Assembly: GCF_003334405.1 (NCBI RefSeq)
Contig: NZ_QOWM01000006.1
DNA length: 64,000 nt
Source: Escherichia coli
GTDB taxonomy: Bacteria > Pseudomonadota > Gammaproteobacteria > Enterobacterales > Enterobacteriaceae
Direction: 5' to 3' (one strand)
Shown here: positions 6,271 through 10,052 of the stretch, piece by piece
How positions within the stretch are numbered: position 1 is the stretch's first letter
Layout of the letters: each line of letters opens with the position of its first letter
Translations under genes and position numbers: made by a program
The notes under the pieces: generated by a model
Told to the model about the DNA's origin: nothing
Seen by the model: the letters and a program-made list of their open reading frames with translations, nothing else
Database searches by the model: none

Positions 6271-6301
6271 AAAAAAACCCGCGCAATGGCGCGGGTTTTT
6301 T
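6271..6301 (-). terminator. leu operon attenuator (rho-independent terminator between leuL and leuA)
   Basis: On the minus-strand transcript: GC-rich hairpin cccgcgccattgcgcggg followed by a U-run; lies between the leader peptide stop (6320) and the leuA start (6227). Confidence 0.85.
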
Positions 6302-6319
6302 GTTTGACTGCGTGCTGGC

Positions 6320-6406
6320 TTAATGCTGGATGCCGCTCACTCGTCTACCGCGCAAAGAAGATGCGTTTAGTAGTAGTAGACCGATAAAGCGAACGATGTG
6401 AGTCAT
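6320..6406 (-). CDS. leuL: leu operon leader peptide, 28 aa
   Basis: [28 protein letters not shown]; four consecutive Leu codons (CUA CUA CUA CUC); embedded in the longer 63-aa track ORF 6320..6511. Confidence 0.9.
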
Positions 6407-6649
6407 TAAATCAGCTCCAGATGAATGCGATATGCTTTTAGAGTTACTGGATACAAAAACGGATGTCAACCCTGACGCAATAAAAACGTCCCGCCAGCGT
6501 GAGTTCTGCATCCGTAAAATTAGCTAATTGTGCTGCGGTGGTTAAAGTAAGCGATATTAATTTCTGCTTAACTACCGACGCTTTTCATCGGTTGACATAT
6601 TTCAGCATAAATTTTTGCATCTAATCAACGAGGAAAAAGGGGACAAAAT

Positions 6650-6890
6650 GCACGCGTTGCAAAACCTATCCTGATGATTTGTATTGAATTATATGTTTTG
6701 CGATTTTTTTTGATATTGATTTGGTGAATATTATTGATCAATTAATGTTAAGAATTAATGCATTAAATATATAAATTAATTATTAAATAAGCACATTTAA
6801 TCCATTTTGTAGATGATTGAGTATTCGCGGTAGTTATGATTAGATTGTTTTCGCAACAAAAACATTATGGATTATTATGCTGTGGTAAAT
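6650..6890. promoter_or_regulatory. Highly AT-rich divergent regulatory region between the leu operon and leuO
   Basis: Roughly 240 bp of A/T-rich sequence (ttgatattgatttggtgaatattattgatcaattaatgttaagaattaatg...). In E. coli this interval is a known H-NS-bound region, which I cite from established knowledge rather than from anything visible here. Confidence 0.5.
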
Positions 6891-7065
6891 GACTCATTCC
6901 ACGGCAATGGATTCTGTTTTTATCAGAACCCGTATCTTTATGTTTTCCGAATTTTACTCATTTTGCTTTTTCTTATTTTATATGCATGATAAATCATATT
7001 CTTCAGGATTATTTCTCTGCATTCCAATAAGGGAAAGGGAGTTAAGTGTGACAGTGGAGTTAAGT

Positions 7066-8010
7066 ATGCCAGAGGTACAAACAGATCATCCAGAGACGGC
7101 GGAGTTAAGCAAACCACAGCTACGCATGGTCGATCTCAACTTATTAACCGTTTTCGATGCCGTGATGCAGGAGCAAAACATTACTCGTGCCGCTCATGTT
7201 CTGGGAATGTCGCAACCTGCGGTCAGTAACGCTGTTGCACGCCTGAAGGTGATGTTTAATGACGAGCTTTTTGTTCGTTATGGCCGTGGTATTCAACCGA
7301 CTGCTCGCGCATTTCAACTTTTTGGTTCAGTTCGTCAGGCATTGCAACTAGTACAAAATGAATTGCCTGGTTCAGGTTTTGAACCCGCGAGCAGTGAACG
7401 TGTATTTCATCTTTGTGTTTGCAGCCCGTTAGACAGCATTCTGACCTCGCAGATTTATAATCACATTGAGCAGATTGCGCCAAATATACATGTTATGTTC
7501 AAGTCTTCATTAAATCAGAACACTGAACATCAGCTGCGTTATCAGGAAACGGAGTTTGTGATTAGTTATGAAGACTTCCATCGTCCTGAATTTACCAGCG
7601 TACCATTATTTAAAGATGAAATGGTGCTGGTAGCCAGCAAAAATCATCCAACAATTAAGGGCCCGTTACTGAAACATGATGTTTATAACGAACAACATGC
7701 GGCGGTTTCGCTCGATCGTTTCGCGTCATTTAGTCAACCTTGGTATGACACGGTAGATAAGCAAGCCAGTATCGCGTATCAGGGCATGGCAATGATGAGC
7801 GTACTTAGCGTGGTGTCGCAAACGCATTTGGTCGCTATTGCGCCGCGTTGGCTGGCTGAAGAGTTCGCTGAATCCTTAGAATTACAGGTATTACCGCTGC
7901 CGTTAAAACAAAACAGCAGAACCTGTTATCTCTCCTGGCATGAAGCTGCCGGGCGCGATAAAGGCCATCAGTGGATGGAAGAGCAATTAGTCTCAATTTG
8001 CAAACGCTAA
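7066..8010 (+). CDS. leuO: LysR-family transcriptional regulator LeuO, 314 aa
   Basis: [36 protein letters not shown]... with N-terminal HTH ([23 protein letters not shown]); the track frame extends 59 codons upstream through AT-rich sequence with no RBS, so it was trimmed. Confidence 0.93.
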
Positions 8011-8016
8011 CTGATT

Positions 8017-8061
8017 GCAGAATAGGTCAGACATGAATGTCTGGTTTATTCTGCATTTTTT
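8017..8061 (+). terminator. Candidate rho-independent terminator downstream of leuO
   Basis: Long inverted repeat gcagaataggtcagacatgaatgtctggtttattctgc followed by atttttt, starting 7 nt after the leuO stop. Confidence 0.7.
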
Positions 8062-8327
8062 ATTGAATGTAGAATTTTATTCTGAATGTGTGGGCTCTCT
8101 ATTTTAGGATTAATTAAAAAAATAGAGAAATTGCTGTAAGTTGTGGGATTCAGCCGATTTATTATCAATTTAATCCTCTGTAATGGAGGATTTTATCGTT
8201 TCTTTTCACCTTTCCTCCTGTTTATTCTTATTACCCCGTGTTTATGTCTCTGGCTGCCAATTGCTTAAGCAAGATCGGACGGTTAATGTGTTTTACACAT
8301 TTTTTCCGTCAAACAGTGAGGCAGGCC

Positions 8328-10052
8328 ATGGAGATGTTGTCTGGAGCCGAGATGGTCGTCCGATCGCTTATCGATCAGGGCGTTAAACAAGTATTCGGTT
8401 ATCCCGGAGGCGCAGTCCTTGATATTTATGATGCATTGCATACCGTGGGTGGTATTGATCATGTATTAGTTCGTCATGAGCAGGCGGCGGTGCATATGGC
8501 CGATGGCCTGGCGCGCGCGACCGGGGAAGTCGGCGTCGTGCTGGTAACGTCGGGTCCAGGGGCGACCAATGCGATTACTGGCATCGCCACCGCTTATATG
8601 GATTCCATTCCATTAGTTGTCCTTTCCGGGCAGGTAGCGACCTCGTTGATAGGTTACGATGCCTTTCAGGAGTGCGACATGGTGGGGATTTCGCGACCGG
8701 TGGTTAAACACAGTTTTCTGGTTAAGCAAACGGAAGACATTCCGCAGGTGCTGAAAAAGGCTTTCTGGCTGGCGGCAAGTGGTCGCCCAGGACCAGTAGT
8801 CGTTGATTTACCGAAAGATATTCTTAATCCGGCGAACAAATTACCCTATGTCTGGCCGGAGTCGGTCAGTATGCGTTCTTACAATCCCACTACTACCGGA
8901 CATAAAGGGCAAATTAAGCGTGCTCTGCAAACGCTGGTAGCGGCAAAAAAACCGGTTGTCTACGTAGGCGGTGGGGCAATCACGGCGGGCTGCCATCAGC
9001 AGTTGAAAGAAACGGTGGAGGCGTTGAATCTGCCCGTTGTTTGCTCATTGATGGGGCTGGGGGCGTTTCCGGCAACGCATCGTCAGGCACTGGGCATGCT
9101 GGGAATGCACGGTACCTACGAAGCCAATATGACGATGCATAACGCGGATGTGATTTTCGCCGTCGGGGTACGATTTGATGACCGAACGACGAACAATCTG
9201 GCAAAGTACTGCCCAAATGCCACTGTTCTGCATATCGATATTGATCCTACTTCCATTTCTAAAACCGTGACTGCGGATATCCCGATTGTGGGGGATGCTC
9301 GCCAGGTCCTCGAACAAATGCTTGAACTCTTGTCGCAAGAATCCGCCCATCAACCACTGGATGAGATCCGCGACTGGTGGCAGCAAATTGAACAGTGGCG
9401 CGCTCGTCAGTGCCTGAAATATGACACTCACAGTGAAAAGATTAAACCGCAGGCGGTGATCGAGACTCTTTGGCGGTTGACGAAGGGAGACGCTTACGTG
9501 ACGTCCGATGTCGGGCAGCACCAGATGTTTGCTGCACTTTATTATCCATTCGACAAACCGCGTCGCTGGATCAATTCCGGTGGCCTCGGCACGATGGGTT
9601 TTGGTTTACCTGCGGCACTGGGCGTCAAAATGGCGTTGCCAGAAGAAACCGTGGTTTGCGTCACTGGCGACGGCAGTATTCAGATGAACATCCAGGAACT
9701 GTCTACCGCGTTGCAATACGAGTTGCCCGTACTGGTGGTGAATCTCAATAACCGCTATCTGGGGATGGTGAAGCAGTGGCAGGACATGATCTATTCCGGC
9801 CGTCATTCACAATCTTATATGCAATCGCTACCCGATTTCGTCCGTCTGGCGGAAGCCTATGGGCATGTCGGGATCCAGATTTCTCATCCGCATGAGCTGG
9901 AAAGCAAACTTAGCGAGGCGCTGGAACAGGTGCGCAATAATCGCCTGGTGTTTGTTGATGTTACCGTCGATGGCAGCGAGCACGTCTACCCGATGCAGAT
10001 TCGCGGGGGCGGAATGGATGAAATGTGGTTAAGCAAAACGGAGAGAACCTGA
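8328..10052 (+). CDS. ilvI: Acetolactate synthase III (AHAS III) large subunit, 574 aa
   Basis: [31 protein letters not shown]... with thiamine-diphosphate motif (GDGS...N); RBS gtgaggcagg upstream of the ATG at 8328; track frame is 30 codons longer. Confidence 0.96.

Follow-up and report, generated by a model that had tools for sequence, protein, structure and literature searches.

The leuL-leuO locus

The window, i.e. the whole stretch of 64,000 nucleotides that was analyzed, contains the gene order leuA, leuL, leuO, yabR, ilvI according to RefSeq, and in a genome comparison the region matched E. coli K-12 derivatives at 100% identity and was present nearly in full in 5,371 of the 5,426 complete genomes of E. 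coli. Window coordinates are converted to MG1655 coordinates by adding 77,302. The leader peptide gene leuL (b0075) occupies 6320-6406 on the minus strand (MG1655 83622-83708) and leuO (b0076, WP_001115472.1), which encodes a LysR-type regulator of 314 amino acids, occupies 7066-8010 on the plus strand (MG1655 84368-85312). The two RefSeq genes leave a spacer of 659 bp (6407-7065; MG1655 83709-84367), exactly the interval that a first-pass annotation of this DNA had delimited, and this spacer is the well-studied, already known leuO control region.

Both flanks of the spacer could be identified. The leu operon leader/attenuator RNA (6271-6420, minus strand), which includes the leuL coding sequence, matched the covariance model Rfam RF00512 (Leu_leader) over its full length with 145.8 bits (gathering score 50), and the leucine-rich leader peptide contains four Leu in a row. 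On the other side, the LeuO equivalog model (NCBIfam NF007063) gave a score of 572 bits (cutoff 262), while the Pfam domains HTH_1 (PF00126) and LysR_substrate (PF03466) were found at residues 83-140 and 189-368, respectively, in the numbering of a longer, 373-residue open reading frame (ORF) that is discussed below.

Base composition and ancestry of the spacer

The spacer had been described as markedly AT-rich, and the composition bears this out: its GC content is 32.9%, compared to 52.3% for the whole window, and falls to 16% in the core between 6701 and 6800. The spacer constitutes the lowest-GC 659-bp stretch within the 64 kb, and the 0.06% of 659-bp windows with an equally low GC content all overlap the leuL-leuO locus. 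The longest pure A/T run of the window (29 nt, 6762-6790) also lies here, and the run that was quoted in the first-pass annotation, taaatatataaattaattattaaataag, is located at 6764-6791, mostly within it. A/T tracts of at least 4 nt occur at 30.3 per kb in the spacer versus 8.3 per kb in the window (3.6-fold) and the TpA density is 0.090 versus 0.042. Such an abundance of A/T tracts and TpA steps is the composition expected of H-NS/StpA-silenced DNA.

A GC content about 20 points below that of the flanks could also be taken as a sign that the spacer was acquired horizontally and is silenced by H-NS as a xenogeneic element, and in one published table leuO is indeed listed as overlapping a GIST genomic-island call (PMC5797941). 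The comparative data contradict this reading. A scan with one genome per species yielded 80 Enterobacteriaceae loci, of which 76 were seen to carry leuL and leuO in divergent orientation, at a distance between leuL and the LeuO match of 570-792 bp (mostly 605-680 bp) and with a spacer GC content of 31-39% versus 46-55% for the loci. The divergent layout, the length and the low GC content are thus shared by many genera, between core-gene flanks, and blocks within the spacer are conserved in sequence. In view of this conserved synteny, horizontal acquisition was rejected as the source of the AT-richness and we consider it highly improbable; on the comparative evidence the spacer is to be regarded as ancestral and not foreign.

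Promoters and conserved blocks

An alignment of 25 sequences (the window and 24 other species) showed discrete conserved blocks amid a fast-evolving AT-rich background, namely the leu promoter region (6414-6454, together with approximately 6462-6472), 6517-6537, 6934-6956, 6966-7004 and 7034-7073. The first of these corresponds to the leuLABCD promoter (6433-6469, minus strand), which has a -35 element TTGACA (6469-6464), a 17-nt spacer and a -10 element TAACTC (6446-6441), and which is kept across the 24 other species. Its transcription start site (TSS) was mapped at 83735(-), i.e. position 6433 of the window, with 3,642 reads (Kim 2012 supplement, PMC3415461). In the same dataset the leuO TSS at 84300(+), i.e. 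position 6998, was represented by only 4 reads. The 51-mer that was printed upstream of this TSS ends exactly at A6998, which gives a 5'UTR of 68 nt and a distance between the divergent starts of about 565 bp. Position 6998 falls at the 3' margin of the block with the highest conservation (6966-7004), and the proximal leuO promoter P2 (6963-6998, plus strand) would by our own reading consist of the putative hexamers TTGCTT (6963-6968) and CATGAT (6985-6990), separated by 16 nt and followed by 7 nt before the TSS.

A consensus scan recovered a second sigma-70-like promoter on the plus strand, TTCGCA-17-TATTAT (6850-6878), with a predicted TSS around 6885. The same elements have been assigned to leuO beneath an RNAP-RpoD (sigma70) SELEX peak in the spacer (PMC3946193). 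This candidate is poorly conserved and its -10 element is lost in Salmonella. It is possibly the distal promoter P1, which was reported to reach its full activity only in hns stpA mutants (PMC3950696). The presence of an RNA element in the leuO 5'UTR was considered as well and rejected: the predicted fold of 7000-7110 was no better than that of shuffled sequences (z = +1.0), so without significant predicted structure, and the only Rfam match was the Leu leader.

The published regulators of leuO include, besides H-NS/StpA, BglJ-RcsB, LeuO itself, LrhA and SlyA, and for several of these a candidate site could be placed on the window, although which conserved block binds which factor is a matter of inference. 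The published BglJ-RcsB site has the motif core wwTTCykA and its centre 57 bp before the P2 TSS (PMC3950696). Counting 57 bases back from 6998 leads to 6941, within the conserved block 6934-6956 (ATCTTTATGTTTTCCGAATTTTA, plus strand), and the sequence TTTTCCGA at 6943-6950 fits the published core. The core motif by itself is non-specific, with 30 matches in the window versus 26 expected and 3 matches in the spacer, and locating the site by the motif alone was therefore rejected. Considering the agreement between motif, published distance and conservation, we assign the candidate BglJ-RcsB activator site (RcsB box) to this block.

Two candidate SlyA sites have been reported at 305 and 297 bp upstream of leuO, as well as an EMSA shift of a leuO fragment by SlyA (PMC5797941). 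The sites, TTAATGCATTAA and TTAAATATATAA, map to 6755-6766 and 6763-6774, inside the AT-rich core, and the fragment maps to 6722-7065. For LeuO, a site I at PleuO has been described as a palindrome almost identical to the core site at cas (Fragel 2019). The stretch 6713-6731 (ATATTGATTTGGTGAATAT) is identical at 15 of 19 positions to the best 19-nt palindrome of the cas3-casA spacer, ATATTCATACTGTGAATAT, as are twelve other sequences, and this candidate autoregulatory site may thus be taken as a low-confidence lead. Finally, the block at 6517-6537 (15-nt mean identity of at least 0.8) contains a perfect 12-bp palindrome, AATTAGCTAATT (6521-6532), and is positioned about 84-104 bp upstream of the leuL TSS; the sequence TTAGCTAA was found upstream of leuO in 40 of the 80 loci.

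Silencing by H-NS and StpA

The first-pass annotation characterized the spacer as a divergent control region bound by nucleoid proteins, and the literature, together with the divergent TSSs, supports this view. H-NS and StpA repress leuO (PMC3950696, PMC5025477), and both papers report, citing Stratmann 2012, that leuO is derepressed in hns and hns stpA mutants. H-NS binding at leuO is present in three genome-wide E. coli datasets (Grainger, Kahramanoglou and Oshima; PMC5797941), while the leuL-leuO spacer carries no 'HNS' flag in the table of PMC3946193. The leuO locus of Salmonella was detected by H-NS ChIP-seq too, is strongly repressed by H-NS, and is counter-silenced by transcription from upstream (PMC10981669).

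The AT-rich runs had also been described as consistent with curved DNA, and this part of the description was not confirmed. Phasing of AA/TT at 10.75-11 bp is modest (z 3.5-4.4) and the power peaks at 8.5 and 11.75 bp, although the maximum AA/TT power over periods of 8-14 bp was matched by only 1.2-1.6% of the shuffled sequences; the phasing is therefore weak and ambiguous. Likewise, the high-affinity H-NS consensus TCGATAAATT is not enriched in the spacer, which contains two matches with 2 mismatches (6734 and 6768), a density close to that of the window. Based on its composition and on the literature about a 72-bp AT-rich silencer in Salmonella, the 16%-GC core at 6701-6800 would be the likely zone of H-NS nucleation and silencing.

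The reading frame upstream of leuO

A mechanical ORF call extends leuO into the spacer, from ATG 6889 to 8010, yielding a protein of 373 residues, i.e. LeuO plus exactly 59 codons. The first-pass annotation had noted this extension and dismissed it as an artefact of the ORF track, a Phe/Ile/Tyr-rich translation without a ribosome binding site, and on each of these points the analysis agrees. The translated extension contains 9 Phe and 9 Ser, and 21 of its 59 residues are Phe, Ile, Tyr or Leu. The pairing between the anti-Shine-Dalgarno (anti-SD) sequence and the region upstream of ATG 6889 amounts to -3.1 kcal/mol at 16 nt from the start, which is near the background mean of -2.6 kcal/mol and therefore implies that there is no ribosome binding site. 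For ATG 7066 the pairing is -5.9 kcal/mol with a 5-nt gap, comparable to that of leuL (-5.6) and leuA (-5.1).

The pattern of conservation leads to the same conclusion. Within 6889-7047 the identity to the 24 other species lacks codon periodicity (0.60/0.59/0.58 for the three positions), whereas the real coding sequence at 7066-7125 displays values of 0.59/0.73/0.37, the decay at the third codon position starting at 7066. ATG 6889 is only 30-40% conserved across genera, and the stretch that stays open ahead of the conserved start ranges between 6 and 81 codons among the 80 species. The frame is not open throughout Escherichia either: eight other loci, among them that of O157:H7, have a TAA at codon -39 or a closer stop. 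Where K-12 has GAA (6949-6951), the TAA is found in O157:H7, in three further strains of E. coli and in two more species of Escherichia, leaving 38 open codons upstream of the ATG, and in one more locus labelled E. coli a closer stop leaves 24. Given the closure elsewhere within the genus, the long frame can be considered an accident of the K-12 lineage.

The extension further coincides with regulatory DNA: the conserved blocks 6934-6956 and 6966-7004, the P2 core promoter and the TSS at 6998 are all inside it, and ATG 6889 is absent from the mapped transcript. A TSS determined in Salmonella by 5'RACE projects onto the window at either ~6917 or ~6957, the homology arms being 72 bp apart in subsp. 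arizonae versus the 112-bp deletion stated in the paper, but as both projections lie downstream of 6889 this ambiguity does not affect the conclusion. At the protein level, the LeuO equivalog model covers residues 69-373 of the long ORF and the helix-turn-helix starts at residue 83, a long way into the protein for a LysR-type regulator; the extension itself falls outside every LeuO or LysR family model.

What could be said for a genuine extended LeuO in K-12 is that the frame is open there, that the predicted promoter under the SELEX peak would place a TSS about 4 nt before ATG 6889, so that translation would start near-leaderless on a distal transcript, which may be made in hns stpA mutants, and that the form has been deposited in GenBank. 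The exact 373-residue sequence is present on 28 contigs, including GenBank entries of Shigella flexneri and some of E. coli, compared to at least 1,000 contigs for the form of 314 residues, which is the one in every E. coli genome inspected in RefSeq. Against it stand the lack of an SD sequence and of codon periodicity, the poor conservation of the ATG and the TAA in O157:H7 and other Escherichia, the presence within the extension of conserved promoter and operator sequences and of the mapped TSS, and the position of the helix-turn-helix. Moreover, a Tn10 hot spot is located 26 bp upstream of the leuO ATG, with five independent insertions of a Tn10 derivative at a site reported by Klauck 1997, and insertion there results in a gain-of-function phenotype that was interpreted as over-expression of LeuO, not loss (PMC5078493). 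The reading is thereby close to refuted and we attach next to no probability to it. The 59-codon extension (6889-7065, plus strand) is a non-coding annotation artefact that consists of regulatory DNA and 5'UTR, and the 373-residue call is exactly the kind of product known as longest-ORF over-extension, where RefSeq keeps 314 residues.

Tandem initiation units at the start of leuO

The designation of ATG 7066 as the start of leuO matches RefSeq and is well supported, but an in-frame GTG at 7048 with a stronger SD sequence had been overlooked. We found that the region 7034-7068 (plus strand) contains two in-frame initiation units, 18 nt apart, which result from an 18-bp tandem duplication upstream of ATG 7066 (GGGAG-TTAAGT-GTG-ACA-GT followed by GGAG-TTAAGT-ATG). 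In the upstream unit GGGAG (7037-7041) is followed after 6 nt by GTG 7048, six codons upstream of and in frame with ATG 7066, and in the downstream unit GGAG (7056-7059) is followed after 6 nt by ATG 7066. The SD energies are -7.9 and -5.9 kcal/mol, respectively, both with a 5-nt gap, and both starts are present on the P2 mRNA, downstream of TSS 6998. The locus thus has two in-frame starts, each with its own SD sequence, on one transcript. The block that encompasses them (7034-7073) hardly varies between genera and exceeds LeuO codons 2-16 in conservation.

To classify the units we used the 80 Enterobacteriaceae species loci, of which 75 could be aligned to the block. Both units are present in 65 of the 80 loci, always 18 nt apart. 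The upstream unit only is found in seven (five Kluyvera species, Pseudocitrobacter and one further Enterobacteriaceae genome); here the upstream codon is ATG and the downstream position reads AGC, AGT, TCT, AAC or TGT, i.e. a non-start codon, so in these organisms the position that corresponds to GTG 7048 has to be the LeuO start. The downstream unit only is found in three aligned loci (Silvania, Klebsiella indica and Raoultella terrigena). The five loci without a block match were inspected individually: those of Atlantibacter (2) and Siccibacter (2) have a downstream-type unit only, and that of Kosakonia oryzendophytica has a single, upstream-like unit. The upstream unit is accordingly kept in 72 of the 75 aligned species. 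Its codon is GTG in 56 loci, ATG in 14, TTG in one, GTA in two and CTG in one, the first base being almost exclusively a start-competent G, A or T and the TG nearly fixed.

The variation around the two starts bears on which of them may be used in E. coli. The 6 nt between GGAG and ATG are free in sequence and never changed in length, which is the signature of an SD spacer and not of codons, and the decay at the third codon position sets in at 7066. These two features favour ATG 7066 as a real start. That E. coli LeuO would be made wholly or partly from GTG 7048, as a protein of 320 residues with ATG 7066 as an internal Met or second start, is in our estimation possible but clearly less probable. 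It would fit the stronger SD pairing at the same 6-nt spacing, the wide retention of the upstream unit, the restriction of the first base to G, A or T with three exceptions (the two GTA and the CTG), the use of the upstream unit as sole start in Kluyvera, Pseudocitrobacter and the further genome, and the location of both starts within the P2 mRNA; in addition, a LeuO of 320 residues is annotated on 101 contigs (e.g. BAJ41930.1). It agrees less well with the 314 residues given by RefSeq for every E. coli genome inspected, with the spacer signature, with the identities by codon position in 7048-7065 (0.86/0.78/0.88, not coding-like, for a stretch of 18 nt only) and with Atlantibacter, Siccibacter, Silvania, Klebsiella indica and Raoultella, which have no usable upstream start. 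GTG is also a weaker start codon than ATG. The predicted accessibility in mRNA ensembles shifted with the chosen transcript ends and favoured neither start, and was set aside as a discriminator for this reason. A full-text literature search that included 'start codon' returned no experimental study of the LeuO N-terminus or of LeuO isoforms.

Natural insertions bear on the same question. The 9-mer GAGTTAAGT, which occurs at 7039 and again at 7057 as part of the duplicated units, is a Tn10/IS10 target, and both IS2 and IS10 were found as natural insertions in the leuO regulatory region, where they, like the laboratory Tn10 hot spot, uncouple the gene from the silencer. The IS10 of strain SEV1, with a target duplication of 7057-7065, parts GTG 7048 from leuO, which speaks against the 320-residue form. 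As the outside end of this element faces leuO, read-out from the IS10 promoter pOUT, a step that is drawn from general knowledge of IS10, likely activates the gene, rather than disruption of the silencer alone.

Two further interpretations of the tandem arrangement were weighed. Both units may be used, giving LeuO of 320 and of 314 residues in E. coli, or the upstream unit may serve as a standby or booster site for ribosome loading that sets the level of translation; we regard this as a tentative proposal, with the odds against it. Several genes are known to have two in-frame translation starts, such as infB (IF2 alpha/beta), clpB and cheA, and leuO resembles these in having two in-frame starts, each with an SD sequence, on one mRNA. 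It differs in that the starts are merely 6 codons apart, within a variable and probably unstructured N-terminal tail, and a functional difference between the proteins of 320 and 314 residues is unlikely. Alternatively, 7034-7065 could be mainly a cis-regulatory element, i.e. an operator on the DNA or a site on the mRNA that is bound by an sRNA or a protein, in which the NTG codons are incidental. The high conservation of the block relative to LeuO codons 2-16, with the third codon positions most conserved, and the several GGA motifs within it are compatible with such a role. Nevertheless, the 5'UTR has no significant predicted structure, no Rfam family matches the block, and the observed variation fits start signals, one start being lost only where the other is ATG, all of which makes a mainly cis-regulatory role improbable.

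A model for leuO control

Taken together, the data very probably describe an ancestral divergent spacer that is silenced by H-NS/StpA, in which the frame from 6889 is accidental and untranslated and LeuO starts within 7034-7068. In this model transcription of leuL runs leftward, with its TSS at 6433, and that of leuO rightward, with the proximal TSS at 6998. Because of its extreme AT-richness the spacer would be a substrate for H-NS/StpA filaments, keeping leuO silent under laboratory conditions, and we infer that these filaments nucleate at 6701-6800 and spread over 6934-7004, where they would occlude the activator site and P2. The conserved blocks would serve as core promoter and as binding sites for BglJ-RcsB, LrhA, SlyA and LeuO, which switch leuO on, with BglJ-RcsB activating P2 from about -57, and transcription from upstream and supercoiling are reported to relieve the silencing. 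Translation would then start within 7034-7068, at ATG 7066 and possibly at GTG 7048 too. Of this scheme, the present analysis itself shows the base composition, the layout shared between species, the SD signals and that the extension is non-coding; repression and occupancy by H-NS/StpA, the TSSs and the binding of regulators are drawn from the literature.

The locus is the same as the leuO promoter region that has been published for E. coli and Salmonella (P1, P2 and the AT-rich silencer of the 'promoter relay') and does not differ from it. It is also similar to the silencer of the bgl operon, which is likewise AT-rich, silenced by H-NS and relieved by IS/Tn insertion, except that the hot-spot target at leuO is a duplicated 9-mer within the translation-initiation region. 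The conserved tandem start arrangement is the only, and mildly, new element.

LeuO is a master H-NS antagonist, with CRISPR-Cas, efflux pumps, the response to acid stress and virulence genes under its control, and the silencing and switching-on of leuO are therefore important. Several of the published regulatory elements have now been placed on the window coordinates, and the long ORF call, which is wrong, persists in some Shigella and E. coli GenBank entries. The exact N-terminus of LeuO, whether from GTG 7048 or from ATG 7066, matters for N-terminal tags and translational fusions. If both units do contribute to initiation, some lineages would have upgraded the upstream GTG to ATG and then lost the downstream start, and a standby or booster unit would set the very low translation of this master H-NS antagonist.

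Translation start region of leuO

Two ribosome-binding/start units, each a Shine-Dalgarno sequence followed by a start codon (GTG 7048 and ATG 7066), precede leuO in the same frame (7034-7068, plus strand) and were created by an 18-bp tandem duplication. We found that this tandem arrangement is kept in 65 of the 80 Enterobacteriaceae species compared. In the same set, Kluyvera and Pseudocitrobacter have only the upstream unit as the leuO start, and Atlantibacter and Siccibacter only the downstream one. Copies of the repeat GGAGTTAAG lie within 7036-7047, 7054-7065 and 7099-7110. The third occurrence of GGAGTTAAG falls within leuO (7101-7109), so that the frame reads R-ELS, V-ELS, A-ELS, and this copy was restricted to Escherichia among the sequences inspected.

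Natural insertion sequences are also present in the leuL-leuO spacer. In E. coli SEV1 (NZ_CP151548.1) an IS10-family element, ISVsa5, is located immediately 5' of ATG 7066, with its outside end towards leuO and with a target duplication, GAGTTAAGT, that corresponds to window positions 7057-7065. The element thereby separates GTG 7048 and the entire silencer from leuO. A further copy of the 9-mer GAGTTAAGT, at 7039-7047, corresponds to the -26 hot spot described for Tn10 (PMC5078493). In strain 10035776-3 an IS2 is found further upstream, around 235 bp before the leuO ATG (window about 6830-6835).

The long leuO reading frame of K-12 (6889-8010) is opened by a single base within 6949-6951, where K-12 has GAA, whereas O157:H7 and other Escherichia have TAA. 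In the BglJ-RcsB core TTTTCC[G/T]A this base occupies the degenerate position 'k', and consequently the K-12 and the O157:H7 alleles both match the published motif.

The leuO-ilvI spacer and other AT-rich DNA

A similar over-extension of the ORF track was observed for ilvI, as the mechanical ORF begins at GTG 8238, 30 codons 5' of the RefSeq start at 8328, and the published transcription start (85599, window 8297) lies downstream of this GTG, which makes 8238-8327 a second such case. The spacer between leuO and ilvI (8011-8327) ranks third in the window for AT-richness (29.5% GC over 8034-8233). Directly 3' of leuO it carries a strong terminator-like hairpin (8016-8055) with a T-run, followed by the RefSeq gene yabR of 14 codons on the minus strand (8165-8209), at whose position a pseudogene labelled 'too short' is annotated in O157:H7 and two other strains. 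Second in AT-richness is the stretch 44200-44858 (37.5% GC), with a 200-bp GC minimum of 26% at 44482-44681.

Palindromes and initiation in the leuL-leuO spacer

The block at 6517-6537, roughly 84-104 bp 5' of the leuL transcription start, is conserved and includes a perfect palindrome of 12 bp, AATTAGCTAATT. It is similar to a shortened SlyA consensus (TTAGCAAGCTAA); TTAGCTAA was found in 40 of the 80 loci. In the cas3-casA spacer the best palindrome is ATATTCATACTGTGAATAT, and ATATTGATTTGGTGAATAT (6713-6731) agrees with it at 15 of 19 positions, a level of similarity that is not unique. ATATTGATTTGGTGAATAT may be the core of LeuO site I mentioned by Fragel 2019. Finally, the TSS table of Kim 2012 (PMC3415461) lists a weak plus-strand start at 83745 (3 reads; window 6443), which was assigned to leuO with a 623-nt UTR. 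This start is placed back-to-back with the strong leuL promoter, which suggests bidirectional initiation there.
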